A stretch of 55,329 nt of DNA from contig MU271204.1 of assembly GCA_021432655.1 (NCBI GenBank), positions 111,019 through 166,347 on the forward strand, written 5' to 3'. Positions 3,339 to 50,370 of the stretch are shown in pieces (within the stretch, counting starts at the first letter, position 1; the number at the start of each line of letters is the position of its first letter). The DNA is from Atractiella rhizophila (Eukaryota). The notes under the pieces are model-generated. The model saw only the letters and a list, made by a program, of their open reading frames with translations. It did not search any database and was not told where the DNA came from. A program made the position numbers and the translations under genes.

Positions 3339-5076
3339 TTGGTTTCCCTCAGCTCCTTCGGATGCCTCCTCGCCCCTCCGGGGCGGCGAATTGAGGAGAA
3401 AAGACATTTTACTGATGACTCACCCCTCTACTTCTTTCCCTACACCAACCTCACAGCCACCCGCTTCTCAATAACCCTTCCTTCTTTACCGCGCAACCCC
3501 AACCCTAACGCAGCCACCTACCCCAGCGGAATTCGAGCTAACATACCCCAATCTATTCACAACCACAAAGGAGAACGTCAGGACGACGTGTCAGGTTGGC
3601 GGAACAAGAAGGGTTTGCTGAACTTCTCCAATGAATGGGAGGGGGTCACAGAAGACTCTCCCGAGTTGATCGCAGCTCGCCAGAAGTGGATGGCGAAGGA
3701 GTATAGGCAGTTCGGGATCGAAGCCTTTGGAAGGCGGAAGAAGACTGGTTGTAGCGTTCCTCCATCCTCTGTTCCCATCATCATCGACTGTTCGAAGCCT
3801 CTGCTCAAGAGTCTGCATACCCAACACATGGCTCTGAGTCCCATCGCCTTTCTAACAACGTCAGTGAAGATGGAAGTTGGGAGGAAGATGGTGGTCGCCC
3901 GTGATGGTCTTCTTAGCTATGCGACGAAGGAAGGTATAGGCTGACCTTCCAAGTTGTCCATCTCAAACTTATCCGGAACGGTGACTAGGTCCCGTTCGAG
4001 TGATCGATCCTGAGTTGAGGGCTAGCATGCCGCTCAACTCCCATTCGTTGCCGATCATTGACATGGCAGTCTCGATGATGGAAGGTCGAAGTCTGTTGAG
4101 TGGAGGATTGAGAGCAGATAGTTTGGCTACGTGCGCGGCGGACGGGAAGTTGATCCTGTGGAAAGTACCTAGCAACTTACGTTTTGGCACTGGCCCCACT
4201 GAGTTTGTCATCCCAATACTCTCCTTCGTTTTCGCCCTGATATGATCCTCCCTCAGGTACAGCATATCCACCGAGATTCACAGCGGCAATATGGGCACGC
4301 TCGCTGGGCTACAATGGCATCCCACCAAACCAGACATCCTTGCCGTTAGGACTACCAAAGGAGCTTTAGCCATTTTGGACTTCGAGAAGGACGTTAGCGG
4401 GAAGATTCTTAACGGGAGAGGCCCAGTGATGTGGGAGGAGGCAATTAAAGGGCAAAGACAAGTAGTCCTCCCTACAGTACGCTAAATGTCCTTACCACAT
4501 TGAGACCAATCTGACCGTAATGTAGATGGCTCGTTTGATGACGTTCTCTCCGGATGGATCTCTCCTCGCTGTCTACACAGAGAACGGCTACCTCTCAATA
4601 CGTGATTCTGAGGATCCTGGTTGAGTAGCGTTCCAATCGGAGCACACTCTGGCAGCTCCCGCATCCAGTGTCACTGGTATCGAATTCCTCAATGCTCCCG
4701 GTTGCCACCTGAGATATATCTCCATCAGTAGAAACAATGGTACCAAAGTAGAGGTTTTCGAGCTCCCTAACCTTCTCCAGTCCGTTCTGCAAGTCAACTT
4801 TACTGCTTCTCAGGTTGCTGGCACATCCCTTCCGCCTCTGGACGTGGCCATTCTCTCTTTTGCCATACATCCTTCCGCTCGAACGTCTCCACGCTCTTCA
4901 TCTCTAACTCACTTCGGGCTAGTTTCTTCGCCTTCCATGTTCAATTCCCGAAATCATCAGAAATTAAGAAGGAATCTAACCGAACAGATGCAGACTTTAT
5001 CAAGCAGATTGTACAGCGAAGACCTGAAGCCAGCACTCTCAATCGTGGTATTCTTCTCACCACTTTCGTCGACTAC
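3339..5076 (+). pseudogene. WD40 beta-propeller resembling the N-terminal domain of fungal Edc4/Pdc1 (mRNA decapping scaffold), with lesions
   Basis: Spliced reading gives IIIDCSKP...LLSYATKEG/PVRVID...IIDMAV...LATCAADGKLILWKVP...LQWHPTKPDILAV...FSPDGSLLAVYTENGYLSIRD...SRNNGT...TLFISNSLRASFFAFHV. Short GT-AG introns lie near 3935-3988, 4203-4256 and 4478-4525. There is an in-frame TGA at 4622-4624 and a frameshift near 4880. The WD40 call is from the motifs; the Edc4 resemblance is from memory of the family. Confidence 0.55.
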
Positions 5077-6768
5077 ATGATCGAGATTCCCACTGAGGAG
5101 ACAGTCATCAGCTTCGCGTTGAACGAGGTGCCTAAGAGAGATAGCATCATTTTATTCTTCAGTCCACAAGGGATAAACCAGCTGTCCATCGACCAACAAT
5201 CCTTGGTTGGTCCTCCAGAGTTTCCATCTCGACCTACCCAAATATGTCCAATTAGCTACCTCCCGCCCGAACTACTGTACCAGTTATTTTACCTTTTCTC
5301 ACCTCGTGTCTCTCACATCAAGGATTTGAATCACGAGTTCATCAAACATTTTTGCATCTTTATACAGATTTGTTGGACGTTCCGCAACATTGGACTCTCT
5401 GCTCTACAAAAATACGTCACTCATTTTGAGGACCAGTTTTCCTCACATGCTATCAACATCAGATACCTCAGGAACATGGCTATGGAACATGAGTCTCCTT
5501 GGCGAGCTGGGGCAAGGTTCAGTCTGGGTCTTCCAGTTCCATCCCTCGTGTCTTGGCCCGAATTACTGCAAGCTGTTAGAGTAACTCGAAATTCGAATGT
5601 GCACCTCTACAATCTTCCATGGAACAACTTTAACCAGGTTGATATGTTGAGGTCAATTTTTAAATACCGGCCAGCATCTTTGACACTCTCCTTTAATAAA
5701 CAACAAGCTGAATTATCTCTGCAACAGATACTTTATGTCCAGGAACACCACATTAGCCATGTCACCATAACCAAGCTGGTTCCTTCACAGGGAGCCCGTT
5801 TCCGCAACGATCTACCCAAGACCTTCGGAAGACTTGCTTTACTTCGATGTCGCCTTTCTGATCAAGACATCTATTGGTCGCCAAGCCAGCAGTCAATTGA
5901 GACATTGATGTTCAGCTCCTTTCATCACTTGCTTACTGCCGATGGCTTTTGTCGCTTTTTAAGGAAAATTACGACACGTAACCTCTGCTGCTCTTTTCAG
6001 GAGCTTTCGGACAGTGATGTGAATGTATCTCGCCTAGGAAGACATATCGACCATGAACTGCTCGATGCGGTAGTTGGGAAGCGTGGTGACGACGGTCGTA
6101 GGACACTTTACATTGATGGAGGAAAGGAGGACTCAAATCTTATTTCTGATCAATTTCTGACAGTCGATGCTCCATGGCAGTATCTATCAGAACTAGTTTT
6201 ACTTTATTGTCATTTTCCGGCCAGCACAGTCTGCAAGTTCCTCCTCTCCATCACTCAAAATTGCCTGTTGAATTTTGCTCATCAACCTTTGGTCATGCAG
6301 CTGAAGCCATTCGTTGGAGATTGTGACATTTCAGATTCCTGGTTCTCTGAAATTGGGGAATGGCAAACATCACAAGGACTGTCTGTGGTAAAATTGTTCA
6401 ACGAAAGGTTGGGGCAAGGTTATCGATATCAGCTGCAGTATGATCCCTTGAGGCCAGGGACAGTTTTCTATGTTTTCTATAAGGGAGATTTCGGCTCCAT
6501 TGACCTGTGGATCATTGATCAGGATGATGTGCCTGGGAATGAAGACTCTCTCTTCTTTTGGCAGAGTTTCAATGCAAACAAGTTAGTGGGTAATTGTGCT
6601 ATTGATAAGTGCACGATGAAGAAGGGGGAAGCATCGACTCCAAGCTCGAAGTATTTGCGGGAACTTAAGGTGATGGAAGAGTCTGGCGAGTTGATTGTGG
6701 CTCGCCAGAAGGAGATGGCAAAGGAGTCTTCAGGCAGGGGTGTGCCAGGGCTATCGTGTCGGAACTGA
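5077..6768 (+). CDS. 563-aa intronless protein with an F-box-like motif
   Basis: Longest ORF in the window. ISYLPPELLYQLFYLF...FCIFIQICWTFRNIG fits the F-box consensus LP.ELL..IF...L..VC..W and is followed by Leu-rich, possibly LRR-like segments. The frame stays open upstream to at least 4861. Confidence 0.6.
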   Translation: MIEIPTEETVISFALNEVPKRDSIILFFSPQGINQLSIDQQSLVGPPEFPSRPTQICPISYLPPELLYQLFYLFSPRVSHIKDLNHEFIKHFCIFIQICWTFRNIGLSALQKYVTHFEDQFSSHAINIRYLRNMAMEHESPWRAGARFSLGLPVPSLVSWPELLQAVRVTRNSNVHLYNLPWNNFNQVDMLRSIFKYRPASLTLSFNKQQAELSLQQILYVQEHHISHVTITKLVPSQGARFRNDLPKTFGRLALLRCRLSDQDIYWSPSQQSIETLMFSSFHHLLTADGFCRFLRKITTRNLCCSFQELSDSDVNVSRLGRHIDHELLDAVVGKRGDDGRRTLYIDGGKEDSNLISDQFLTVDAPWQYLSELVLLYCHFPASTVCKFLLSITQNCLLNFAHQPLVMQLKPFVGDCDISDSWFSEIGEWQTSQGLSVVKLFNERLGQGYRYQLQYDPLRPGTVFYVFYKGDFGSIDLWIIDQDDVPGNEDSLFFWQSFNANKLVGNCAIDKCTMKKGEASTPSSKYLRELKVMEESGELIVARQKEMAKESSGRGVPGLSCRN

Positions 6769-11555: not shown

Positions 11556-12111
11556 CTTAAGTTTTTGCTTTGTGGTTCCAGTTGATTCCAAACACTGTAT
11601 AACATACATACTTGTGATATCTGATGTTTTCCGATGATATTCCAGCCACAAGTCCCCTTTTTTGCTGCCCCTACTCATATGCAAGCACCTTTTATATGCA
11701 AGCTTAGGTGGTCCACCGCGGGCCTACATGTTTAGGGGTCTGACTGTACAACATTTTCCGTCCTGCTGGAATATGCAGGAAACACCGAAAATTATGGCTG
11801 TGTTGCTGATTATTTCCTGGATTTTCATGAAGCAGAAAACATATGAGAATGTATAGTAGAATAAAATCAAAAATGTATAGATCGTGAATAGCTGCATTTC
11901 CCTGTATTATCCTGCACCCCCTCCCCCTCTTTCCTGGTTGTACGCACCTCCTCTGTCATCAGATCCCCTGCAGGTAGAACCTCTGAAACCCATCTTCCCA
12001 TCTCTTCTACGCTTGCCATACAAGTCCGTCTTGCAGCATATTATAACTGTCCCTCCATCATCGAGGGGACAATGGCAGGAGTCATGGTATGATGATGAAG
12101 TGATGTGTCGA

Positions 12112-12200
12112 GGGGAGGATGGTGAGTGGGCTAAGCACCAGTCCTGGCCAGCCAAACAACAGTTTTTATGTGGCTGTGGGTTCGAATCCCACCCTCCTCA
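12112..12200 (+). pseudogene. Degenerate tRNA-like sequence (tRNA pseudogene or SINE head)
   Basis: Perfect T-arm gtggg-ttcgaat-cccac (B box), an A-box-like tggtgagtgggctaag, and ggggagg/cctcctc acceptor-type pairing followed by A. No recognisable anticodon arm. Confidence 0.55.
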
Positions 12201-14299
12201 CCTTGCTTGACCCAACCAACCGCCCTGGCTTGACCTGGGACACTGATACTGATGTCAGTAGCTGAGGGTGAAACCCCTCCGCACACTATTGGTACCACTG
12301 TGGATGCACAGTACAGGGGCGTGGTGCTGTGATGGTGCCAAGCCTCCCCTTGTTTCTTGGTGAACGCGTTTCCAATGTGCATGAGATCTGCAGCCTTCAC
12401 ACAAGTGACAGAATTATGCCTCTCCTCCTTTCGCCATTTGCGCGTTTAGTTTCCTTCGATTTGCCACATGGATCTCTCTGTTATAAAAGCTTGTAAACCT
12501 GCAAGTGCATGACTTATACTCATTGTTATCTCGCACTTCACAGGTAATGTAGTTTCCTTACATACTAAATGCAACTCATACTCATTGTTATCTCGTACTT
12601 CGCAGCGCTCACACATTTATCAACAAGGAGATAGGACATTTAGCCGAAGCTTGCGATCCGAACACGATTGAAATCTTTCTAGAGTTCCACTGTCCATGAC
12701 GTTGCGCACATTGCAAGGCTGGATGCGGAGAGGGTAGTCGGCGTTAAGTTTGATATTGAGAGCCAGGATTTGTAGTTCACTCCGTTAGAATTAGCTGATA
12801 AAGGGAAGTAAGGCACAACCTAGTTTATCCAGCAGCGATAATCGATCGATTCTCAGAATTACGACTTTCCCAGTCCAAACCTTCTGAATGGTTGCTGTGG
12901 CACCGTCACTTCATTTCTTTCTTAGTAGTAGCTTTGGCATCGCCGTGTTTCCTCTTTTATTCAGCCACGTGAAACCTTGACTGTGTAATTATAATGGCAG
13001 TCTGTTCAGAAAGTACGAAACAGAACCGACTGTCAAAGGTTTTGACTTGAGTTTGGATAATTGAACGATACTGAATTTGTTCCTTTGAATAACGATTGAC
13101 ATTGTCAAAAGACGACCAAAATGTTCCTGATTGCCAGTGCTGCTGATGACCAAGTTGGCCAAAAGTGACCACGTGACAAGCGGACTACGGAGAAATGTAC
13201 CAAAGTATTGGATAACTGAGGACAAGTGAAGTTTCAGAGGTATTGTAGCAAGAGGATATTGTGATGAAAGTAGAATGGACAATAACAGTTGTGATGGCAC
13301 CAAACTTCCGTAGGCACAAAAAGCTGAGGAAGAAAGCAACGCAACAGAAATGGTTATGAGACCGAAAGTATTCATAGTGAAAATTTGGGGGCTTGGAACC
13401 GCTGGAATCACAGATTTCACATTGTATCCCACAACAAGCAACACATTTTGATGGGGTCGATGTCGCCGACCAGTTGCACTCTGAGTCTGCAAGAAATGAA
13501 GTGTTTTCTGATGACGGCAGGACGCTTATCTAAACCATTCACCCATCACCCACCACAGCAAAGCCAGAGGCAGAGGATGTAACTCACATTTATTTTGAAT
13601 GTCGAAATTTTGGCAGACACATCTTTTCCCCTCAGCTTCATCAGATTAATTCATGCGATGCCTTGGGAATGGGAAACCAACGCTTGACCTAAAAACGACC
13701 GCAGATATGTTAATCCCGCCTTCAGAACTGGAGCACGCAGAGGAAATCAGTACTGTCCTCGAAGCCACACAAGTCCATCAATCGATGAAGGAAAGTACTC
13801 TACACCATTCATGTCCAAACCCTTTGATACGACGCTGAGAGATCATTGTGTCAGTGGGGGTGCTTTGAGTAACTCACAAACCTGCGGGGAAAACTAAGAG
13901 GACAAAGAGGACCGATTTAAGCTAGCCTGCAAGTGTGGATCTAGTGCGTAACGTATGGATTACTATCACCTCGTCAGCAGAACTAGACCTGTGTAGGACC
14001 GTAAAATCTGCCAGAGAATAAAGCTTGCTTGATGCCTTCCTCCAGATGTAAATTTCCTTTGTTGCATTCATGTCTGGCAAAGACTAATGGTACAGAAAGT
14101 GCCTGGAAAATGAAGATACAGATTGATGACCATGAAATGAGTGAGCCTCTGAAGCGAAACTGAGAATGAGCTCCTTTTAAGCAGGGGAAACAAGCTGGAA
14201 GAGAAGAATCGAAGAATTAAGGCGTTTCAATGATACTGATCAGTGACTTGATTCATTAGCTCAGTCACAAAGTTTGGAGTGCATTCACAGACAATGACA

Positions 14300-14580: not shown

Positions 14581-17500
14581 CTCTCACAGATAGAGCCAGC
14601 CATCATTTCCGCTGTTCATAACCACTGATCTGAAGCATTGTGGCAAACTGGTCACCCCGAGGGTTTTGTGCAATTTCGGGGAGATTTGCGCCGCATCTGG
14701 CTGCAAACACAAAAGTGGTTGGACCTTGAATATTGTTGGACTTCAGGTTGAGTGACGAATCGATGTTTTGCACCCCATAGTTAGCCGCTCCATTTACCTT
14801 CCCCCTCGATCTTCCTCCGGCTTCCATCCCTATTTCTCTCCTTCGAGCTCCTTCCCCATTTTGTACACCTGACTCCAGCGCGGCACCGACTCTTAGGGGC
14901 ATCTTCTGTCGCCATTCTGTCCACACGCTTGACCTTTCTCTCAAGCAAGTAGCGACAACACAGAGCACTGCATAATTCCCATATGTGGCTAGAGGCCAGA
15001 AGGGGTAAGGAGGCGGCGGAAAAAGTGTCGAAATCTGGAAGAAGACGGCGGAGGATGGGTTTGATGCTGTCAATAAGAATGCGGTCGAACTGCCTCGCTT
15101 GCGGCGGATGTAAAGCTGGATGAAGGCCTTAGAAGGGATGGTGGCTACGATTTTGTGTAGGAGTGCAATGAATAATGGGAACCTGGATCCGGAAAGACTA
15201 CTGTGGTGGCACAGAGACACCAATCAAGGTAAGCCTGCCTCCTTTCTTCTCTACGATGGTATTTATGTTCTACCATTCAGAAGATTAGATTGACAATTGG
15301 CTACAGAGCAGCCACCGCTGCGGACCATCCCTCCTCTGCGATTCTCCCCTTCATCCCTCCAAAGGCATCCAGCATCCCCCCCACTGTTTTGCGTCCCAGT
15401 CCGACAACATACAATCGTTCCTTTCAGGCTTGCAGAAGAGGACATAGAATTCTCCCAGAGCACCGTTCCGTCGAAAAGAAAGTAACAGCACGACATAGCA
15501 GTGTGTTCCGTTACATCCCCTCTGTGGATCATTCAGCCTTAGCAGCGTGGCAGGTGTTAGAAATGGCGGAGAGACCCTCATATATTGAATGCCTCAAAGC
15601 GTGTGCGAAACTTGCCCACCCTTTTACATACAGCAGTAGCAAGAACTATACTTTCACCACGCTTCAACTCAATGTTGCCGAGATATCCCTACGGTCAAAA
15701 GCAACCTCTTCTTTCCAACACGGTCTTCGGTCAAAATCAACTCTCCATGAAGATAAGGATTTGAGCACCTGGTTAGGAAAGTACGGCCAACTACATGTGG
15801 ATATGAAGGACGCAATCTTGGGAAGAACGGTAGCATTGTTCTTCTTAAATCATAGCTGTGGTAGGTCCTTTTGTCTTCAAATTTATGTCCTTCTCCTCAA
15901 GCACGGCTTTGAGCTGATGAATTATTGGATTGGTTGGGCATTCATGGGGGAAGATTCGGTCTCGTCCGTTCAGGCGAATGGAAGAAACCCACATGGAGGA
16001 AGCAGGTTATGTAGCTTGAGGGACTTACAAGAGAGCGTGGCAAATGGTGAGATGGAGGTGGACTCGACAAGCGACATGGATCAAAGAACCTTTGAGCAGA
16101 TCAAAGAACCTTTGAGCAACTCCCTGCCGATGCCGTTCGTATTGGTTACATCAACTACGCAACTGAATTGGCAATCCACCGTCAGATACCGCTCTCTCTC
16201 CAGCCGGCAGATATCAACACGGAGCTCACTACAAAGTCCTTACCATCAAAGCGCAAGACAGCCTCCATTTTTTGTATGAGACTCCGAACGAACTTTTTAA
16301 TTGGCCGAGATCTCGTTGGTGGTTTTTTAATCTCTACGAGAAGCGGCACCACAAGAGAAATGATGCGAAATTTTTGGTCGTCCCACAAGTCGGTTAGATC
16401 GGGAGGGAAGCTGGAGATTTTCTCGCCAGACTCGCGATCAACCACGTTTTCAAGATATGCCAGCGCAAAGTCAACTATCACACCGCGAGCTATCTTGTCC
16501 GGCATAGTGTCGAAACTGTCGTCTCCACCTCCCCTCTAGGCATCCTCCAACATCCCTCTATAAATCCAAAACTGGGGGAGCACAGCCAAGGGCCATGTAT
16601 CCTTATCACAGTTTATTGCTAACAATAGCAGCTGCATGGTCCATATTCCATAGCTGGGATATTCAAGGCCACGGTAGTTATATCGACCACTACCTGATAT
16701 CATCAAGGAAGTGGAAGTCGACCGATCACACCAAGTTTGCTACACCCCATCACTCGAATCAGTTTATCCTCTGAGGAAGAACTTCCGAAAAGATTTGGAG
16801 GAAATAGCTACAAGAAACTCGATGATCTGACTTGCCAATTCTAGTTGGCTAGGAGAGTGAGATTGTGGTTCTGCCATCATCAGACTGAGAATCAATCGAA
16901 TAGCTAGCCAGCCGTAGAGCTCGGATGGGACGAAATCGAAAGCAAGCGTCGTCGTGTCTCGATCGATCGATGGCAATTGCCCCTAGGGTTCGCGCAAGCC
17001 ACCAGGTTGTTAGGTTAATTGGGTTATGTTGAATAAGTTCACAATTATGAACATATAGGGGTAACGATTCTTATCAGATGAAGCTCAACAACTTCGTCAT
17101 GCCTACTTTTGACTTTCTGGTTGCTTGAGCTCAACAGCAAAGAATATGATAACATGGGTCAAAGGGCACACATTCAGGTATGAAGAAAAAAGGCAGGGCT
17201 GGGGCAATAACGTGTATGAATCGGTCCGTTTCGTTCAATCATAGCATATCGTAGCTGTAGGTGTCAGGTGCAGTTAAACGTCGCTTTGACATCAATAATA
17301 TCCAAAGGCGAAGGGTATCAGCCATGAACAGGCATGGACCCTCTGGAACTTGCACTGGGTTGAGTGCTCTGGTAGTATCCCACGCTCCTCCAAAGATCGA
17401 ATCTCTCTTCAGGTTCGAACCTACTCGTCCGGTAACCCATAGAGCCACAAAGCACAGCAGATATTGCGGAACGACCAGAGCATGTTGGGTCTGAAATGAG

Positions 17501-19531: not shown

Positions 19532-21119
19532 TGTTGGATTTTGCAGTCTAGTTTCGTGCCACTCAGTGGCAAAGTTTTTTAGGTTTCTGGAATGTTCTAC
19601 TATTTTCTAGTTGCCCCTGCTGTAAGATATATAAACACATAGAATTCCATTTCCTGGTGCTCATGCGTTTGCAAGAGCTCAGCCAAACGTAACCAAGTCG
19701 TACTTAGCTCCGCTCCTCAGCCCGTCGATTTCCAACACAAACGCATCCGGTTAGACCACCGTCACCAGTCCAGAAGAGCGGATCTGTACGACCCACGCGC
19801 CAGCCATGTCGACCCACACTGTTGGAATTCATTCATTCATTCGCGAAATTCCAAAGCTCGATGGAACAAACTATGCAGACTGGAAATTTGCTGTCACCCT
19901 CGTCCTGAAGAAATGCAATTGCTGGGATATCCTTACAAGCACGACAGATGGTGTCCAGACAAGGACTGCATCAGATGAAACGAAGAGACAGCTTGAAGAC
20001 TCACTTACAATAATTGGACTCAGCCTCGATCTGTCGCAGTTCATGTATGTTCGAAGCAGCACTACTGGTCCAGAAGCATGGAAAGCCCTGAAGGAGAAGT
20101 ATGAGAAATCCTCAAAAGCGAACAGAATCACCTTGAAACGCGCATTTTACACGACAAAGCATGATTTCAGCGCCCCCATTGAACAATTCATCTCCCACGT
20201 CCTTGAATCAGCATCAAAAATGAAATCAATCGGCCTAACCCTGTCAGACCAAGATATTACGGATGTCCTGACATTCAACCTTGCAGAAACATGGGGAAGC
20301 CTTGCCAGCACGCTCATGGCCACGACAGGGGAGCAGACAATTGATGAAGTCGTTTCAGCACTCAGGGATGAAGAGAAGAGAAGAGGTGGAATACCAGGAG
20401 AGATAGAGATAGCTGCAATGGCTAGAGCAGCGCCTAAATGGGAAAGGAAGGAACAACAGAGGGAGAATAGTCGAAGATTTGAACGATATTCAGAATCCCA
20501 GAATAACGGTACCTCGCAGCCTGTTGGATATGTGGTAATCCCACTCACATTGCTCGAGATTGTGACAGAAAAGCAAAGCCACAGGAGAGTACACACCTAG
20601 CTATTAATGAAGCTTTGATCGATGCAGCTTTTTAGAAGAAGGAAGAAGATTGAGAGTAGGAATAGTTGAATGGTCTTAAGATCCGGTGAAATTTGGCGAA
20701 TGGTGGCCGTGTATCATCTTCAGGCTTAGGAAGAAGATCTTTCATCGTTGGTGAAGCATCATGGGACAGCTATGACCTCGTATTGATGTGCCTTGAAGCG
20801 GCAGAAGCAAGAAATCGGCGGAGTTTTGAGGAGTATTAAAGTTTGAGATCCCCTTGTTGAGAACTGAATTGATCCTTGTTTACCTTTTAATGACCTTATC
20901 GATTAACTTTACTTTCTATTGATTACCTCGTGGCACTCCACAAGCCTGGGCGGAAGTGTTGGATTTTGCAGTCTAGTTTCGTGCCACTCAGTGGCAAAGT
21001 TCTTTAGTTTTCTGGAATGTTCTACTATTTTCTAGTTGCCACTGCTGTAAGATATATAAACATATAGAATTCCATTTCCTGGTGCTCATGCGTTTGCAAG
21101 AGCTCAGCCAAACGTAACC
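19532..21119 (+). mobile_element. Non-autonomous gag-only Ty1/copia-type LTR retrotransposon
   Basis: 5' LTR 19532-19737 (TGTTGGA...TCCAACA, TATA at 19628). 3' LTR 20957-21119 is truncated and shows 4 mismatches over 163 nt. A purine-rich gggcggaag precedes the 3' LTR. The 1.2-kb interior holds gag only, with no pol. Confidence 0.9.
19806..20635 (+). CDS. Copia-type Gag (UBN2/Retrotran_gag_2-like) with a frameshifted CCHC knuckle
   Basis: IPKLDGTNYADWKF.V..VL....CWDI, AWKALKEKYEKSS.ANRITLKR.FY, L.NL...W. The knuckle CWICGNPTHIARDC at 20522-20563 lies in another frame and ends at TAG 20633-20635. Confidence 0.85.
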
Positions 21120-21925
21120 TTTCGGCAATCCCTCTTCCAATGACCTTCGATGCCACTTTTATGGCATTTGCCCTTTTTCTTCTCGCTCTTCGACCTCCCT
21201 CCACCGCTACTTCCACCTCCCGACGTGGTATAGTTCCTTCCTACTCCCCTAGACCTCGTAACTAACGCTTCGCTAGGTTTTGAGTCTGGATTCCTTCGAT
21301 CGGCTTCGAGCAGGAGACGGCAAGCGACGTAGGAGGACGTGAAATCAGAGGAGAAGACGGCGTTGAACGAGGAGACGACTTCGATCCAGGACGGCAGTAG
21401 GGAGATCAACAGTAGCATCGCGACATCCTCATCATCCGTCTTGTCACCCATCGCCTTCAACTCTTGCCCCATGGTGCGAATCCGATTGACATGATCTCGC
21501 ATCAACTCACCCTCGACGTAACGCGCGGTGTAGAGCTTCTGACGGAGGAGAACACGAGCCTGGCGGTCCTGGGTTTGGTAGAGCTCCTTGAGCCTATCCC
21601 AAACCTCCTTCGGCTTCTCGACGTCGATATCCAGGATATCGGTGACTACCTGGTCTTTGCAGGCTTCGATAATGATCGAATAGGCTAGGTTCACCCGTCT
21701 CGTCCAGTCCTTCTGCGACGCCTTGACCTTTGCGACTTCCTCCGGCTTCCCAGCCTCTCCACCAACGGCAACGGGTTTGACATCCGTCCCAGCAATGATC
21801 CCCCAGCAATTCTTGCCGAGCAGCTTCGCCTGGACATGGAAGTACCAGATGTGGTAGTTCTCCCATCCCTCGAGTTTTGGGATAGTCGAAGAAGTAAGTA
21901 TGGTGGTGTCATGATTTTCAGACAT
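21104..21925 (-). CDS. Second, different copia Gag, truncated right after its zinc knuckle
   Basis: IPKLEGWENYHIWYFHVQAKL....CWGII, VWDRLKELYQ, MRDHVNRI..MGQELKAMG....DED.AMLLLISL..SW, and knuckle CHKSGIEGHWKRDC (second Cys changed to Ser). The last codons are read from the other element's 3' LTR. Confidence 0.88.
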   Translation of the reverse strand: MSENHDTTILTSSTIPKLEGWENYHIWYFHVQAKLLGKNCWGIIAGTDVKPVAVGGEAGKPEEVAKVKASQKDWTRRVNLAYSIIIEACKDQVVTDILDIDVEKPKEVWDRLKELYQTQDRQARVLLRQKLYTARYVEGELMRDHVNRIRTMGQELKAMGDKTDDEDVAMLLLISLLPSWIEVVSSFNAVFSSDFTSSYVACRLLLEADRRNPDSKPSEALVTRSRGVGRNYTTSGGGSSGGGRSKSEKKKGKCHKSGIEGHWKRDCRKVTFG

Positions 21926-21970
21926 TTCAGGCTGACTAGGTGGCAGGGAATTCGGCTAGATGAGAACGAT

Positions 21971-33250: not shown

Positions 33251-35956
33251 GTCGGAACGATGAGGTGTGCATTATCAAAGAATGAGGTCGCTGCGATTGA
33301 GGTTTCGAGAGTGGAGTGAATGTGCTCCTGCTGGCTGACAGGCACGGAGGAGACTCGAGGAGGAGCAGGGATGCTGGATGGTGGCAAATACACGGTTTGG
33401 AAACTGTTGTCACATCAGTTTCCAACTCCGGTAAAACAAAAGGATGCCGACATACCTTTCCTGACCTGCTTGAATAGCCTTGCACATCCCATCCGCTTTC
33501 TGGTGAGAATGGAGATGGTTAGACTTGACACGCTTTCTGTAGAAAGGGTATGGAATCATCCCCTAACACAGTGGAAGCATGAAACAGTCGAAGTTGAGAG
33601 TGCATACCTCCTCTGTAGGTTCTCAATCCTGCTGACGTTGTCTCCGCTTCCTCTCCCTCTCAAAACTCCGACTACGCTTCGACGATTGAGCTCAGGCTTC
33701 ATCCTCCCCCGTCGATTTTCTCTTTCTGCTCAATGCTGGCTCTTCTTCAGCACCACCCTTTCTGCCTCCCACCATCTCTCGTTCGGCATGAGCACTCGAT
33801 ATATGCTTGATCACAGCTCCTTCATTTTCTTCTCGCCAAAATCCACCGCTTACTCGAGAAGGATAACTGCTAAAGGTTGGTCGCGAGGCTCGGAGAGGGC
33901 CGCAGGCTGTAAGGGGAGGAGCCCACTCCGTGCAGGTATGTGTGACAGAGGGGTACGAGAGCGGCAACATTGAGAAGGAGATTTAGAAGAGTAACGGCGA
34001 GGGCTAGGAGGGCTAGGAGACTCCAATGAGCGACGACGGAGTGGTCGTATGGGGCAAGAATCTAAGTGAGGATTTCTATGCAAAATCGGAACATGTACAT
34101 CTAGTAACTGGGCTCCAGTGTTGTTTTGAAGAGCCGGATCCAGAGTAAAGCTGAACGAGGGAGAAGAAGGAAACTCTTGATTATAAACATGGCTATGAAC
34201 AGTTATGGCGGTTTGCGAAGAGGGTTGAATGGTAATAGGTTATGATGTTCCTGTTTGGGACTGGGGGTTGAGAGTGGTTGAGGCGGAGATTAGGCCTAGT
34301 GTGATCAAGAAGCCGGTGCCATAGATGAACGATGAATGTGAAGAAATGCTGCAAGAAAAGTACGAAGGTATGCGGTGGAGTAGGAGAGGTTGAGTGGATG
34401 GAAGGTATGTCGACTCCGATTATTAACTTGGTGTTGTCGTAGTACGATGTAGAATTATGCGTGACCGTGCAAGTAGAACTGGGATCATTAGCGGTCGTGA
34501 ACGTGCAGTGAGAAGAAAGTTGCTTGATGCGACAAACAGGGACGATTCTATTTCACCTAGGATGCAAACCTTGCGCGTTGCAGATAACTGTTTCACATCC
34601 TTTTCACGATGATCAGAAGGTTGTCGGAGTTTGTCGATCTCCTCCCACTGAGAATCAGTCCTTGCCAGGTTTTTAGACCTTACCCAGTCGTTGCACTCAC
34701 CTGATACAGGACAGCTTTTTCACGGATTTGTCACCGGCGTTCCGTCCCGCGAGGGGAACCACCACTCTCTTGTGATTATCTCCTGCGATCACGAAGTCCT
34801 TTGGTGTTCTCAACGTTTACCCGACGACTGTAGCGCATAGGAAAGCAGTCTATAAAGATCAAACTCTCCATTATGGATCGCAAAGAATATGTACTTCATA
34901 TGTTGGAATTGATCAATCCGCTGATGCGACATTGTGACTAGAAAGTTTATTCCACGGACATGGGACAGGAGATGCAGTTGGAAGTAATCGACATTGCTCG
35001 GGAAGTCTTGGAGCAACTCAAAGATCACAGTAACCAAGACGTGAGTTCTTTCAATGGTGGTGGATAGAGCACTTGAGCGATCTGCTGTATTGTTTGATCC
35101 GCGACAGCAAGCAAAGGTGATAAGGGGAAAACTTGAACAGAAATACCCGGGTACCTGGTTCGTCACAGTACACCCTGCAGGCAGCACTTATGGTCATGCT
35201 GTAACTGCCCGTAAGTGTTTGCTCCTGCAGGGTTGTTGTGGTTATTCATCTACAGTTCGCTTGTAGAGCCTGGAAGCTACTTTTCTTTTTTCTTTATTTC
35301 AATGGGGAAAGGCGCTGTAGGATATCCCTGCTCGTTTCCTTTTTGAGCTGACAGTGTGTTCAGTCGGTGTTCCGGCCGGTGCTAATCAAGGAGTAGGAGA
35401 AATGCCGTGTTAGCTCTGGTTATTGGTTATTGTGGTGTATGGGCCTCCATTAGACAGCATTTGTAACCGTACCCCAACACAGCAAAGGAAATGTCAAATC
35501 AGATACTGTAGTAAGGTTACATAGCTAATAGGTTCATTAGTAGATAACCAAGCGCTAACGATCCAATCTCACAGAATGGTCCCTCAGCAATTGCGGACCG
35601 TTACATCCCTATGGCCAACGTTCCAACAATGGAAGGATTGTCGACGGCCCATGAACACTTCGAGAATTCCAGGCCAGTCCTGCTTGCATTGGACATTCCA
35701 GCACCCAGCACCACAGCTGTCGAAACTGCTGCTGTAATTCCTCCTGCTCATATGGTCCCACGGACAACGCCTTCGTAACCCCCTTACGGTTGATCACCCA
35801 CTATCGTACCGCATCAGCTACTGGCCTGCGGACGCTTCCCTCGAAATGTTGCCAGCCCCTTACTTAATTTATTCACGATACAATGGTCAACCCGCTTCAC
35901 ATGCGGGCAATACCTTCCTATTCTGGAAGCGGCTCCTGCCTAACTTGGAAGTCACA

Positions 35957-40535: not shown

Positions 40536-42824
40536 CTAAGAAAGCTCGGGATTGAAAGGACGGTGATGGTCCAAGTGAGGCCCAGTGATTTGTAACCACG
40601 TCGTATCCTTGTTCAGTTCAACGGAGATGTTGTGGTCTAGCATCCCCGCCAACAACGGATGGTCGTAGAGGGCTTGAGATTGGGAGGACGGTGGGGGCTC
40701 AACCGGGATCCCACTCGCCCACGCATGACCGTCCTCGTTAAGTCGAAGGGAGATGTTGCGGTCTGGCATCCCCAACGATGAATGGTCGAAGAGGGCTTGA
40801 GATTGGGAGGACGGCGGTGGCTCAACCGGGATCCCACTCGCCCACGCATGACCGTCCTCGTTAAGTCGAAGGGAGATGTTGCGGTCTGGCATCCCCAACG
40901 ATGAATGGTCGAAGAGGGCTTGAGATTGGGAGGACGGCGGTGGCTCAACCGGGATCCCACTCGCCCACGCATGACCGTCCTCGTTAAGTCGAAGGGAGAT
41001 GTTGCGGTCTGGCATCCCCAACGATGAATGGTCGAAGAGGGCTTGAGATTGTGAGGACGGCGGTGGCTCAACCGGGATCCCACTCGCCCACGCATGACCG
41101 TCCTCGTTAAGTCGAAGGGAGATGTTGTGGTCTGGCATCCCCAACGATGAATGGTCGAAGAGGGCTTGAGATTGGGAGGACGGCGGTGGCTCAACCGGGA
41201 TCCCACTCGCCCAGGCATGACCGTCCTCGTTAAGTCTAAGGGAGATGTTGCGGTCTGGCATCCCCAACGATGAATGGTCGAAGAGGGCTTGAGATTGGGA
41301 GGACGGCGGTGGCTCAACCGGGATCCCACTCGCCCACGCATGACCGTCCTCGTTAAGTCGAAGGGAGATGTTGCGGTCTGGCATCCCCAACGATGAATGG
41401 TCGAAGAGGGCTTGAGATTGGGAGGACGGCGGTGGCTCAACCGGGATCCCACTCGCCCACGCATGACCGTCCTCGTTAAGTCGAAGGGAGATGTTGTGGT
41501 CTGGCATCCCCAACGACGAATGGTCGAAGAGGGCTCGACATTGGATGGACTGGAATTGGAGTGACTCTTGATGCTCGCGATGAAGTTCACGATTGAAGCC
41601 TGTGAGTGCGAGAGTAGGAAGAGAGCCCAAACGGTCGGATGAAGAATTGGAGATTGATTGGTATTGGGGGTTACCGTCCCGTCTTTGCCCCAACAGCGAC
41701 CCGGCATGTCCACTATGCTTCTCCTCACTCCCCATCTCAGCTGAACCGCCCATCCCATCCCGCCTATCAGTTTGCTTGTTGCTACCTCTTTCTGCTTCTG
41801 AAAGTAGTCCTTGCAATTCCGCCTTCTCCTTCTCCAACCTTAAAACTACACCTTCCAATTCTCTGATCTTGTTCTTCGCGGCATGGAACTCTGCATAGTG
41901 ATCAGACGATTTACTGAAAGGTAGGGCGAATTACCAGAATCCGGCAAAAGCACAAATGTCGCCCGGGATCCAAGCATACCCCTGCATCCCTGTTCAACTC
42001 AAGCAATTTGGGAAAGTCCCGCTCACTAACATGTCGCAGGTGTCTCGCGAAGACGAATTGGGTCTAGAACTGGCGTGCTGAAACTGCTCTTAAAACGGGT
42101 GAAGAGCTTAACTAACACGTACAAACTCTGGGCTCAGGTCGGGACGACTTGAGTCCACATCCCCTCCTCTGCTTCCTTGGACGTCGTGCACCTTCACAGA
42201 GGAGAGGGAACACACATTTGACGTTTGGGATCGCGAAGGAGCACCGGTTCTTCTCTGTTTGTGGGAGGGGTGTTTCTTCAGTGCTAAAACTTCGCTTGAG
42301 CTGCGTTTTATCAACAATTCTAACATACCACAACGGTTACAAATGATTCTGCCAGCCGCATCCTCCCTCCACTTAGTAGTTAGCTGGCGCCCACACATAG
42401 GACAACATTCTGGCTCCTTTTGTCGAAAACATTGTTAATGGAGCTCAACATTGACTTCTACGAAACACGCACCTTGCGCTTTGGACGGCCCGGAGGACGA
42501 TGTTTGGGACGGCACGAAATCCCACTCCTGCACGCCGTTCAGAAGCCGAAAACCTTGAAAGTCAACCCGCTTACTCAAGGCAACGTGAACAAGGCATCAT
42601 CTACGTGAGGAATCAGTCACAGGTCTCACCGCTGCACAACCATACCCTATTACACAAAATCTTTCTACTGTGACACGCCTGATGTTAATTCATCAATTCT
42701 CACATGCACTTGATTACACGAAGTCACATACCTCACAAGCTAGCATGGCGCACGACAATTACTCAGTATTCTCGATAAACATGAAAGCAGACGTACCTGC
42801 CACCATGTTTTCTTGGGTTGCCAT
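40536..42824 (-). CDS. Spliced transcription factor: Zn(II)2Cys6 + AT-hook-like + GATA finger + coiled coil + 41-aa repeats
   Basis: Exons 42824-42797, 42739-42732, 42678-42646, 42600-42575, 42527-42473 and 42416-42329, joined through 45-57 nt GT-AG introns, give MATQENMVAACEACHSRKILCNRMMPCSRCLESGISCRPKHRPPGRPKRKEPECCPMCGRQLTTKWREDAAGRIICNRC. The last exon is the 440-aa ORF. Exons between 42283 and 41895 were not fully resolved. Confidence 0.8.
40674..41534 (-). repeat. Coding tandem repeat, 7 x 123 bp (41 aa), plus a diverged eighth unit
   Basis: ALFDHSSLGMPD(H/R)NISLRLNEDGHAWASGIPVEPPPSSQSQ x7, nearly identical at DNA level, followed by ALYDHPLLAGMLDHNISVELNKD. Confidence 0.97.
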
Positions 42825-45800
42825 TCGATGGAGCTGTTCGAGTGCGAGGAGAGGAGAAAATGCAGCTGAGCTTTAAAGAAGGTGCCTCACAATAACCTTA
42901 ATATTTTGAGTTAGGTCAATATTTGCAATCTAGTAATCAAGGTTTCCCCTCAAAGTTTCCTCCCATTCACCATTTGCAAAACCGTGGGAACGAACTGTCT
43001 TACATCCTTTTCAGGATGATCACAAGGTTGTCGGAGGTGATTTTTAAGGTTTGTCGTCGTTGTGACCTTCGGCTCCGATAACTCCAAAGCCGCCGTACAA
43101 TTGCGTGCTACTTAATAAGCATGGCCAAAGGCGCCAAAGGCGCCAACCTGCGCTATTTTGCGACACCAACATAAAGTTGACGAGGAGCAATAAATGGACA
43201 CTCATTTTGCAAATGACGGTAACGGTACTCCCCCAAAGCATCGCCCTTCTAGAAGAACAGAATAACCTATTACCATCGAGTCATCCAACTATCTTCACAA
43301 GCCGCCAAGACTGGTCATAGCCATGTTGATAATTCACGAGTTTCTTTCTTCTCCCTCGTTCAACTTTACTCTGGATCTGAGTCTTCAAAAAGACACTGAA
43401 GCCCAGTTACATGCCAAATGTGGGACACCAGGATTCCAAGTCTGAAACCTAAAACTAAAAAGTTGATCCATCACAGCTTGCTGATGGCAACAAGAACTTG
43501 CGTGTTCAGGCTGGAATCAGAAAATTGCTGTCTCCTCACCACAGTTTATGCTCAAATTGCCGAATTTCAACGAAGTAGTGAGTCACCAAGAAATCCTGAA
43601 ATAAAAAGCAAGACGTTTGACCATGACTCACGCATACACTTTCGAACCCTTAAATCACCGCCCACACAACAACCCTTTCAGAATTTTGGGTATACCACCA
43701 GAATACGCGTGTGAGCGCCTTTCGAAGCGTATACAGCAAAGACCATTTGCAAACACAAAAAAACGAGGGGGCCACTCAGCTTGTGTCAAAAAGCAGTATC
43801 GAAGAGTCGAAGAGTCGCATTGCAACCTTTGCACGCCTCTCGCAAGTGCAGTATTAGCATGTATTTGATGCCCTGGTTCCTCTGTCGGATTCCAACTCTT
43901 CTTCACCTCCCTCCCTCCAACTCCTCCACTTTGTCCACCTTCCACATCACTTCGACCCTGTTTTTGATTAATGTCACCGCGAACCAGTATTAACGTCTAT
44001 ATTGATGCGGTGAAGATTGAAAATACTCTCAAGATGATCTTGGAGTGTGCAAGTGCGGAAGCTGCAACTGCTGAAGACGTTTTGGAGCATTTGGAGCAAT
44101 AGAAAGCAATTCATGGAGGGGACGAGCTCAAACCTTTGGAGGTGGTGACATGCACTTTAGGTTCTTTCTATTTGAACATGAGACTCAAAGGTGATCAAGG
44201 TACATGCAAAGGCAGCGGTGCTTGTCTTCCACAATGTCCTCGTTATGCTGAACTCTCCGACCTCTTGAAAAGGCAGCAAGCACCTTTAGACTCAAAGGTG
44301 CCTGGAGATAATCTTAGGTCAGCTATTCTACAAGCATTCCATGTTCTTGGTGTTGATCCACGATTTGCAGAGTGAACCCTGCGGAAGCATCGTACGAAGC
44401 ACTTTGAGTTGACGACTTTTGGGAAATCCAACGTTCAGGTGAGGTTCAAAGAAATGAATTCACATTGGCTCATGCTCCTGGGGTATACCATCTCGTCTCA
44501 AGCAACCATTGCGGCATCATTGGCCAATGTGTTGGCAAGACATTGGGATGGTCTCGTTGTCGTCAACAAGGTCAGCTCTTTCCTCATTATCGGGATTTGT
44601 CTCATGAGTGCACCGTTTTTTGACAGCAAGGATACGAGCCGCCAAAATTGATAGCCGAGATGTCATTCGAGAAGTATGATGAATTCTTAGGTTTGGGCCA
44701 ATGGAGAGAAACAGAAAGCGAAAGCTCAGGTGCAGAAGGGGGAGAAGGGGGTAAAAAGGAATGATTGCAATACAGTTTGTTACAATATTCGTGTTCTGAT
44801 CAATTGTGCCAGCTGCAGATTTACTGAGGTAGATGCTGGACTTCATCTGCAGTCCCATTGGCAACAGCTCCCTTAGTCCGTTCAGCAATCATGAGAAGTG
44901 TGCCTTATTTTCACATCAGCCATGGAAACGCCAGGAAAAAAGAGCACACCGCATCTTGACATTGGCACGCGCTTTCCCTCCAAGTTGCCCAATCAAAACA
45001 CGCAGCCCTTCGTCCGATAAGCCGTGGATATTGAAGCCGGGCTGGAAACAAGGCAACGCAAGGAAGGCAACGGATGGACGAGCCAGGGTTTATTTGGCTT
45101 TTGTTTGAAGGGCTTTTGATTCTTGGTGCTTCTTGATACCTTCGCAGATAAGAGCTCTCTGATCGAGCTAAGGGATAGGTGGGCGAAATTGTTGGGGGAG
45201 AGAACTATTTCGAAGACTGTGGGTATTCAGAAGGTAAAGTGCTTGACCATCTCAAACCCGTCATCAATGCAGCCTGCAATTGGACAAGCATGTTGGACAT
45301 TGGCAACAGCTTTCAGGGAATCCTCTCAATGGAATGAATCTAGAGTGCTCTTCCTAAAGAGTTGCAACTTACAGCTGAGCCCAGTTTGGAGAAGTACACA
45401 GAGGGCAATAAGAGAGCTAGCTGAAAGCCCTTGTAGCACGTTCCTGTAAAAGCGAGCTGGCGGCCATATGCATGAAGTTCCTGTGTATTCACCCTAAGAG
45501 ATCTGTCCACCGGTTGGACAAGGAGAATTTGGTTAATCTGGAAGATGTACAGGGAGTGGAAACAGAACCATGAGCAACACACCAATATTGTGAAGAGACA
45601 CACCTGTTCCTTCTCCTCCATCAGAACGAACATATCCGTCCATGCCTCCTAATCGGACGCGGTAGTAACTGAATGCACTCGAAGATGCTTGTATTCCAGG
45701 AAGTTCTGACCATCAGAGGGGAGGTGAAGTGAGGGCCGCAGTTGGTGAAGGATTGTGTCGGCTGCTGATATGTGCAAGTTGCTCCTACTTTCGACCAACT

Positions 45801-48379: not shown

Positions 48380-50370
48380 GCCAGAATCCCAAGAACAATA
48401 GCTGTGAGTTACCAGCAGAACTTTGGTAATAGATTGGAATGTAACCTTGAGTTTCCTGTAGACCGCGTCAAATGTAAAGCATGCAACAAAGAATTCGAGA
48501 GTCGAACAACCATTGTCAAAGAACACCTTGCCAATAGTTGTTTGAAGATCAGCCCAGAAGATTGAGAATATTGTGCCAACTTCATTACGATGCACAGCGC
48601 TGGAGAAGCGACTTTGGATTTGGATCCCGACATCATCGAAATTACTCCAGCCCCAGTTTCCAAGACTCACAACGAATTTCAGGCGGGAGTTCTACCTCTT
48701 CTATCTTTGCCAGATTCTGCGCAGCAAGTTTCTTCAAAGGGATCTCAATCAAAAGTCATCCCGTTCACTTTCTAAAAAGCAAAAGACACTCCTTCTGTTC
48801 TGGCCAGCCTTTTTGTCATTGACCCCTTTCCAAAATCTGTTACCTGGATGCATGACAAGAGACTGCTCCTTGCAATGATAGACACTTTAGTATCATTTTC
48901 ACTCGTTAATGACCCATTCTTTCACCAATGGGTGAACGGTATTCAACCAAACTATAGCATGCTTGAAGAAACAGCATTCAGAACAGATCTGTTAACAGAG
49001 CTCTATGCTGACATTCAAAAGAAAAACATAGAGATTCTAAAGACAGCTGACAACATCAGTCTTGGCCTTGACGGATGGGAAGATCAGCAGAAGAGATCCA
49101 TTTACCTCTTGCTTGCAACGGTAAAAGGGCACGATCCTATTATCCTCGAGCTCCAAGATCTCAGTGATGTCCGTCATACTGCTTCCTGTCTGCAACAGTT
49201 TGTTAATGAATCAATTGTTAGAGCTGAAGTTAGTTGGGATGCTGTTTCTTCTCTGTTTACGGATTCACCTTCTACAATGGTAAAGTTACATGTAGATCTT
49301 GAGAAAGAACATCCTTCATTGCTTATCAGGCCATGTTCTCTACATCACTTCGCTCTTTTGATCCGTGATATTTGTAGTTTTGTCGAAGCTTCCGCACTTA
49401 TTAAAGAAAATTCTGCTATTATTCGCTTTTATACAACTTCTCATATTTGGAAAGCCAGATTAGGGGACATACGTAAGCTTGAGAATGTTACCTGTGGCTT
49501 GAGAAGTGAAGTCGCAACAAGATGGTACTATATTGGACATCTCCTCCATACTCTTATTGGTCATGAGTATGATGTCTATAATTTTCACTTACTCATAGAT
49601 CCACTAATGTACATGTTTGTAGTAGGTCTGCTTTCGGAGTGATTAGCATGCATTCAGAGGCAACAGATCGCAAGGGAATGGGTATCAATGCTGATGTCCT
49701 CACTTCACTGTGTTGTATCTCATTCTTCCCAGAGCACAAGCTCCTTCTCCGTGTGTCGGTCTTGTAGTTAATACGATTGGAAAGCTGGAGAGGTCCGACT
49801 GCACATTAGCCGACGTTGCGCTTGAGCTGCTTCATCTTGCAAAGCCCTTTCATCAAATGGATTTGGAGCAAGAGGAAGACCCCGATATCGGCTAGGAGAA
49901 CTTATTCGTCGAGTATGCAGTTTCGTGTTTCAAGAACCGGTTCCATGCCATCGATTCCGACCTCCTTTTCGTCCCCCTTTACCTTCATCCAATGTGCCAT
50001 GGAATCGCCATCTCCCGACGTATAGTGAACTCTTGCAACCTCACCGATGTCAAATCCTTCTTACTTCAACTTTGTGGAGTGCTGGAAGCTTTCCAGCAAA
50101 GCCTCCGCCCTTCTTTGCGACATTGTCGACGAGTCTCATAACTTTGAGGGGAAGTTTGCGGAAACCTCCCTTAATGCCCTGAAGTATTGGGAGAAATTGA
50201 CCCTTCCTCCATCGCAATATCCACTCATTTCTGTCGCCATTCGCATCTTCAGCGTGGTTCCACACGCTCGGGTTGTTGAAAGTACCTTTTCTGTTCTCAG
50301 TCACATTCATACTCAAGATCGCAATCCTCTTACAGTCTCCAAGCTCAAGCAATTGGTCGTGATCAAGTGA
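48380..50370 (+). pseudogene. hAT transposase (BED finger, DUF659-type core, C-terminal dimerisation domain), disrupted
   Basis: RVKCKACNKEF...KEHLANSC; ISLGLDGWED; FTDSPSTM; PCSLHHFALLIRDI; VATRWY; KYWEKL...YPLISVAIRIFSVVPHARVVESTFS.LS.IHT.DRNPL. Stops and frameshifts lie between the pieces. Confidence 0.9.

Follow-up and report, generated by a model that had tools for sequence, protein, structure and literature searches.

The question raised by this locus is whether two DNA-binding modules, a Zn2Cys6 cluster and a GATA finger, are joined in one protein, and whether both of them can be expected to read DNA. The window, that is the whole stretch of 55,329 nt of Atractiella rhizophila DNA that was analysed, had been read from its letters alone as hiding such a pair in six small exons, with an AT-hook-like linker between the modules, and the product had been taken for a lineage-specific dual-specificity regulator.

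In the spliced model the dual-module gene occupies positions 40536-42838 of the minus strand, with 10 exons giving 615 residues and one stop. The original prediction was right in that six exons of 28, 8, 33, 26, 55 and 88 nt are joined in phase, the five introns predicted between them being spliced out in sequencing contigs, and the joined exons show the cluster, linker and finger in the proposed order, the finger starting 17 residues past the cluster. It was wrong about the extent of the gene, which it ended at exon 6, since the reading frame continues to a stop codon at 40538-40536. Precisely, the parts are the following:

42797..42838, minus strand: exon 1, with the ATG at 42824 (28 nt from the ATG) and a leader transcribed to at least 42838 (contig of run X2).
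42732..42739, minus strand: exon 2, an 8-nt micro-exon that bears Cys1; X2 and X10 show its letters between 42680 and 42797.
42646..42678, minus strand: exon 3, 33 nt, with Cys2, a basic stretch holding the lysine equivalent to Gal4 Lys18, and Cys3.
42575..42600, minus strand: exon 4, 26 nt, with Pro-Cys4 and Cys5.
42473..42527, minus strand: exon 5, 55 nt, with Cys6 and the basic GRP (AT-hook-like) linker.
42329..42416, minus strand: exon 6, 88 nt, with the GATA-type CX2CX17CX2C finger (residues 55-79).
42123..42283, minus strand: exon 7, with the end of the shortened finger helix followed by a Ser/Arg-rich linker, seen in spliced contigs.
42031..42077, minus strand: exon 8, 47 nt of linker, seen in spliced contigs.
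41935..41981, minus strand: exon 9, 47 nt of linker, seen in spliced contigs.
40536..41890, minus strand: exon 10, with a coiled coil, repeats and the stop codon at its end.
42328-42284, 42122-42078, 42030-41982 and 41934-41891, minus strand: four further introns, spliced in 4/4 runs.

Introns 1-5 are of the GT-AG type and measure 57, 53, 45, 47 and 56 nt, the acceptor of intron 5 being AAG, a rarer type. The evidence for splicing comes from public contigs of 4 of 11 sequencing runs, none of which is recorded as RNA: the RNA label is a tool's guess for X1-X3 and is missing for X10, and the gaps in the contigs nevertheless coincide exactly with GT-AG introns. Introns 1 and 2, with the letters of the micro-exon between them, are removed in two of the four runs, intron 3 also in two, and introns 4 and 5 in three. 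Exon 1 is joined to exon 10 by a contig of X2 (931 nt) and by one of X10 (846 nt), so both modules lie on one 615-codon ORF of the minus strand. Unspliced introns, or domains on separate transcripts, had been named as the outcomes that would speak against the gene; as the introns are spliced and contigs from exon 1 to exon 10 exist, the contigs gave neither, placing both modules on a single transcript. A DNA search of the assembly returned no second full copy able to mimic the spliced form, and the gene structure and its splicing are, in our view, virtually beyond doubt.

For exon 10, the contigs cover 41560-41890 and continue past 41560, the remainder of the exon being taken from the open frame. 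Intron 6 is open in frame, and its reading as coding was rejected because it is spliced out in all four runs; a donor-like site at 42215 in exon 7, which matches an intron of the paralogs, is read through in all four. Run X10 equals the reference at all four of the variant sites listed, X2 deviates at three, and X10 may be the source strain. Our spliced-motif finder, which tolerates up to four introns, gave one match when both strands of the window were read, namely the present gene, and 0 in 40 shuffled strands of 55 kb. Two protein searches came back empty and missed even the gene's own product: the finger frame, looked for in longer proteins, had 0 matches among 132 candidates, and exon 10 had 0 among 8000 scored.

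The cluster, CX2CX6CX5CX2CX6C at residues 11-37, falls within the Zn2Cys6 spacing CX2CX6CX5-12CX2CX6-8C, and it has Lys18 of the model, four residues after Cys2, and Pro26, just before Cys4. Lys18 of Gal4 also stands four residues after Cys2, and we take the two lysines to match in position. A profile made from 16 intronless clusters of the same genome gave the window cluster 10.8 bits, the training rows 54-76 and the best of 200 shuffled sequences 5.8; by this measure the cluster is divergent. Lys18 of Gal4 is described as the sole side-chain base contact to CGG, and the coil downstream as the dimerising part (PMC6265462). By analogy, the window cluster is on balance likely to bind CGG-type DNA.

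The core of an AT-hook is RGRP. Here the linker (residues 43-50) is basic and has GRP, and a proline precedes the GRP, so that the RGRP core is lacking; the paralog on contig C77 has RGRP and that on C381 has neither. Two further features lie in exon 10:

41799..41867, minus strand: leucine-zipper-like coil, residues 173-195.
40623..41544, minus strand: 41-residue repeats, 7.5 in-frame copies of 123 nt, 97% alike.

The coil is likely a dimer helix. As the aligned stretch stopped at 41560, the evidence for the repeats is the open frame, and a DNA search found the 123-nt unit nowhere else in the genome. No Pfam middle-homology domain was found in exon 10; Pfam matches of CobS_N and Ish1 on the repeats were rejected, as no stretch passes alone.

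The finger has the loop Trp-Arg and the Cys-Asn of the CX2CX17-20CX2C type. In a comparison with 279 reference fingers, all four Cys are in place, as are Trp12, Arg13, Gly18, Asn23 and Leu27 (the first Leu of the helix), and the finger deviates at Glu14, Arg24, Lys28 and position 11 (loop position 7). The last is Leu in 96% of the references, Lys here and Arg in the three paralogs, so that all four family fingers have a basic residue instead of the loop leucine; neither Lys nor Arg is among the two commonest residues there in the references. With respect to the paralogs, about 11 codons and one intron are absent right after Leu27 and the last cysteine, near 42279 in the DNA alignment, with breakpoints that are not exact. 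The loop leucine of GATA factors contacts the major groove and tunes the specificity of AreA, and the recognition helix runs through GLY[FY]KLH, according to a recent preprint (bioRxiv 10.1101/2022.05.20.492891). Since the deleted residues fall in this GLY[FY]KLH stretch, most of the recognition helix, which the paralogs keep, has been lost, and the weak basic tail pointed out for the finger is real and due to the same deletion. The PF00320 scores on the unspliced frame were 22.1 and 23.5 bits, under the cut-off of 26.8, against 33.2-42.6 for the paralogs. Judged by these residues, the window finger is very probably not a canonical GATA binder. Dual specificity, as proposed at the outset, is doubtful for this copy, given the Lys in place of the loop Leu, the missing codons and the helix mostly gone.

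What had been overlooked is that the gene is a member of a family. A search of the genome with the window finger gave 8 matches and one with PF00320 gave 19, with related divergent fingers at three other loci: C77, C381 and C250, the last also present as an identical copy on C523. In total the genome has three dual Zn2Cys6-GATA genes (window, C77, C381) and one paralog without cluster (C250/C523). The DNA alignments to the paralogs make the introns recognisable, and even intron sequence is common to the family; we consider the window gene and the C77, C381 and C250 genes almost certainly paralogous. The C77 protein (P0163) exceeds both Pfam cut-offs (PF00172, 26.4 vs 21; PF00320, 39.1 vs 26.8) and aligns in BLASTP with residues 7-102 of the window model at 31% identity (E 6e-13). 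A single-sequence AlphaFold2 model of P0163 had a mean pLDDT of 52.7, with the cluster unresolved, the finger at 56-69 and the coil at 75-94. The C381 protein (P0164) is annotated from an inner methionine and without cluster, and predicted cluster exons upstream read in frame into it. Read by eye, C250/C523 keeps exon 1 and the finger and is missing the cluster exons. The intron after the C250 finger (L005, 1580-1624) starts with GC, and the NCBI model P0066 splices it. On C1245 (L045) a C77-type 3′ fragment has coil exons and one stop; in the 1.5 kb before it neither a finger nor a cluster was seen.

The annotated proteins of the paralogs carry in NCBI the name Atractiella rhizophila, a root endophyte of the Pucciniomycotina (PMC6450171). 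In a protein search 3 of 91 candidates passed, and all three were the paralogs of this species. A profile of the four fingers, run against 1.84 billion representatives, gave no Zn2Cys6 pattern among the best 150; an SreA-type cysteine box was present in 95 of these 150, and one of them was the C250 paralog. The ESM Atlas (clusters with at least 50 members) returned GATA clusters alone, all under 0.9 and none with PF00172. The one hit of a metagenome scan, out of 488 candidates, was rejected as a chance match of 12 residues in an unrelated small ORF. As far as these searches reach, the family is restricted to this species, a limit that may be one of the species or of its class; this agrees with the proposed lineage specificity.

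As to the origin of the hybrid, two splice-aware cluster patterns occurred at 9 and 6 places in the genome, with 4 and 2 in the controls. On C51, C119 and C162 stand three genes whose full clusters are likewise made from a 33-nt and a 26-nt exon, and none of them is among the 19 PF00320 matches; exons 3 and 4 have these identical lengths also in C77 and C381. C128, C337 and C262 were rejected as full clusters because a full cluster is not built there. In C51 (L095) the cluster exons seem to be repeated about 350 nt beyond the first set, and C128 and C337 (L098, L100, L101) have tandem copies of partial cluster exons. In C162 and C119 a coil follows shortly after the cluster, and the intron leading into it is of phase 1, as it is in the hybrid family. 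The comparison of coils is based on about 40 residues: the window coil matched that of C162 best (z 7.4, against 1.7 for the coil of a Cir1-like gene of the same genome) and the C77 coil behaved likewise (5.0 against 0.0), so we rejected a Cir1 origin for the coil; the coils of C250 and C381 gave z 1.7 and 1.6 to C162, which does not discriminate. From these likenesses, cluster and coil would, somewhat more probably than otherwise, derive from a single Zn2Cys6 gene.

The finger has another likely source. The Cir1-like gene, on C237, C222 and C352, has a single finger with a cysteine box upstream, the layout given for Cir1 of Cryptococcus (PMC1637126). In its exon structure it agrees with C77, C250 and C381: the last Cys-Gly is followed by a phase-1 intron and a micro-exon of 14 nt, and the intron after that and a third donor position are also common to them. 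Among 7 other finger loci (the second finger of L017 excluded), the first intron was present in one clear finger (L011) and the micro-exon in none. In likeness to the Cir1-like gene, the first intron was equalled by 0, 0, 1 and 3 of 74 background introns; the second, by 0, 18 and 36 of 74, so it was above the background in one of three paralogs. The protein sequences of the fingers give the Cir1-like gene no preference: by identity to the family fingers the Cir1-like gene ranks 71-184 of 280, class profiles score the family fingers nearer to "other" second fingers than to SreA second fingers, and a tree of 27 finger columns (65 rows, including a sample of 60 of the 279 references) did not resolve, leaving the four family fingers unjoined and the window finger on the longest branch (3.48). 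Taken together, and mainly from the introns, the finger probably came from a gene of the Cir1/SreA type. Finger exons of this type, without the cysteine-rich iron box, would have been inserted between the cluster and the coil of a basidiomycete Zn2Cys6 gene; the hybrid would then have been duplicated, and its copies would have shed one or the other module, C250/C523 the cluster and the window copy most of the finger helix. The three copies of the Cir1/SreA-like gene (L088-L090), 97-99% alike over 4-4.8 kb, are either true duplicates or haplotypes of the assembly. C623 has two GATA fingers split by introns, at 12061-12114 and 13910-13963, which are nearly identical and separated by about 1.85 kb.

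The surroundings are rich in transposons, as had been stated. The window holds Helitron fragments (1345-2583), two facing copia-type gag ORFs (19755-21955) and a hAT-type element (48776-50370) with DUF659 and a dimerisation domain. Upstream of the gene is a MITE-like stretch (43134-43221, 43282-43410 and 42993-43036) that matches both inverted ends of elements of about 360 nt on C1820, C10 and C317, with an inverted copy at 34104-34231 of the window and a direct one of 44 nt at 34586-34629. Open frames of 665 and 348 codons at 4771-6768 and 15233-16279, both on the plus strand, have no Pfam match.

Our best reading, to which we give a probability of roughly 0.55, is that the gene encodes a dimeric Gal4-like CGG binder with a degenerate finger, in a family that would have arisen by insertion of finger exons. 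The protein would dimerise through the coil and the cluster would read CGG-type half-sites, both by analogy with Gal4-type factors. The basic GRP linker may contribute contacts to the minor groove or the backbone, and the repeats may serve as an activation region; the finger would still hold zinc, yet no longer read GATA sites in the canonical way.

We consider it unlikely that the protein is instead a dual-specificity factor with a re-wired finger, in which the basic residue gives the finger a new target sequence, the two modules together bind a composite site, and the basic stretch past the shortened helix of the window copy replaces the tail. The presence of Lys or Arg for the loop Leu in all four fingers of the family suggests a change that has been kept, and substitutions at this leucine alter the specificity of AreA (bioRxiv 10.1101/2022.05.20.492891). 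The window finger retains its four Cys, Trp12, Arg13, Asn23 and Leu27, with an Arg landing at position 36 when aligned without gaps; cluster and finger are just 17 residues apart, and C77 and C381 have the whole helix. In the window finger, however, nothing is left of the aromatic pair or of the remaining helix, a proline follows four residues after the leucine, the score is below the Pfam cut-off and the branch in the tree is the longest. For the family as a whole it is possible, if doubtful, that we see a new expanded group in which a re-wired iron-regulator finger (Leu to Arg or Lys) and the cluster read a novel composite site; its living copies could then, just as tentatively, be seen to show every stage, with both modules, with in effect the cluster, and with the finger only.

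The same internal deletion and long branch could mark a decaying duplicate, still transcribed and spliced, in which selection is relaxed and neither module matters. The recent 7.5-fold expansion of the repeats, the transposon-rich region and the truncated relatives on C250/C523 and C1245 would fit, as would the strain differences listed among the four runs, all four of which change a residue, one of them in the coil; four differences, however, are too few to demonstrate relaxed selection. Against decay, a frame of 615 codons is open over 10 exons with all ten zinc-binding cysteines intact, deletion and repeats preserve the frame, and spliced contigs occur in all four runs; we hold this reading to be improbable. 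Very improbable, finally, is a Zn2Cys6 factor whose finger now serves to bind proteins, in the way that GATA-1 binds FOG with its N-terminal finger: GATA fingers can bind proteins (PMC7614390) and the zinc core is retained here while DNA-facing residues are lost, but one paralog has lost its cluster and retains a finger with the complete helix.

The value of the finding is lowered by the damage to the finger of the window copy, and the binding role is one that we infer. Its worth rests on the expansion to three members, an exon origin that can be traced and a family-wide change at the specificity position. With three dual genes in one genome, introns that record the probable making of the hybrid and paralogs that lack one or the other module, the family offers a small system in which to learn whether DNA-binding modules that have been fused cooperate or one of the two decays, and what effect a basic residue has at the position that sets GATA specificity. 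Genes of this class are undercounted: the annotation of C381 leaves out the cluster, and the searches of the protein collection did not bring up the window gene. A literature search, mainly of open papers, gave nothing on the expansion or origin of the family, or on the function of any protein with GATA finger and Zn cluster.

Three known systems are to be compared. For the finger these are Cir1 of Cryptococcus neoformans and the iron-responsive GATA factors SreA, Fep1, Urbs1 and Sfu1. Like them, the window gene has a single CX2CX17CX2C finger of the C-terminal type, and the Cir1-like gene of the same genome has the intron positions and the micro-exon of the family. Unlike them, the spliced model of the window has no cysteine-rich box, and a zinc cluster stands upstream instead; because that box is absent, there is no sign of iron sensing. 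The loop leucine is also replaced and the helix of the window copy shortened.

With Gal4, Ppr1 and Put3, and with C162, C119 and C51, the protein shares the six-Cys spacing, the lysine after Cys2, the proline before Cys4 and the coil, and with the last three also the 33- and 26-nt exons. It differs from the Gal4 type in that about 135 residues, including the GATA finger, separate cluster and coil, not a short linker.

The third system is the class of dual factors in the survey of Shelest 2017 (PMC5415576), where, according to its Table 3 and Table S4, GATA with Zn cluster occurs in 5 of 191 fungal genomes (columns Clafu, Dotse, Calvi, Dacsp and Rhiso), with at most one gene each, and is the rarest dual class; this agrees with the rarity claimed for the combination. 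None of these five proteins surfaced in our searches of the representatives, the protein candidates and the ESM Atlas. By the two domains that define dual-specificity factors, the window protein has both by pattern and P0163 has both by Pfam, the window finger being without two GATA features. The likeness to the class lies in the domain pair, modules of PF00172 and PF00320 type in one protein, and in paralogs that lose one module, as the C2H2 plus Zn-cluster paralogs of Aspergillus nidulans have done (PMC5415576). The dual class and its pattern of decay were thus already known, as the survey describes both. Here, unlike in that class with its single gene per genome at most, three dual genes and a derived one stand in the same genome.
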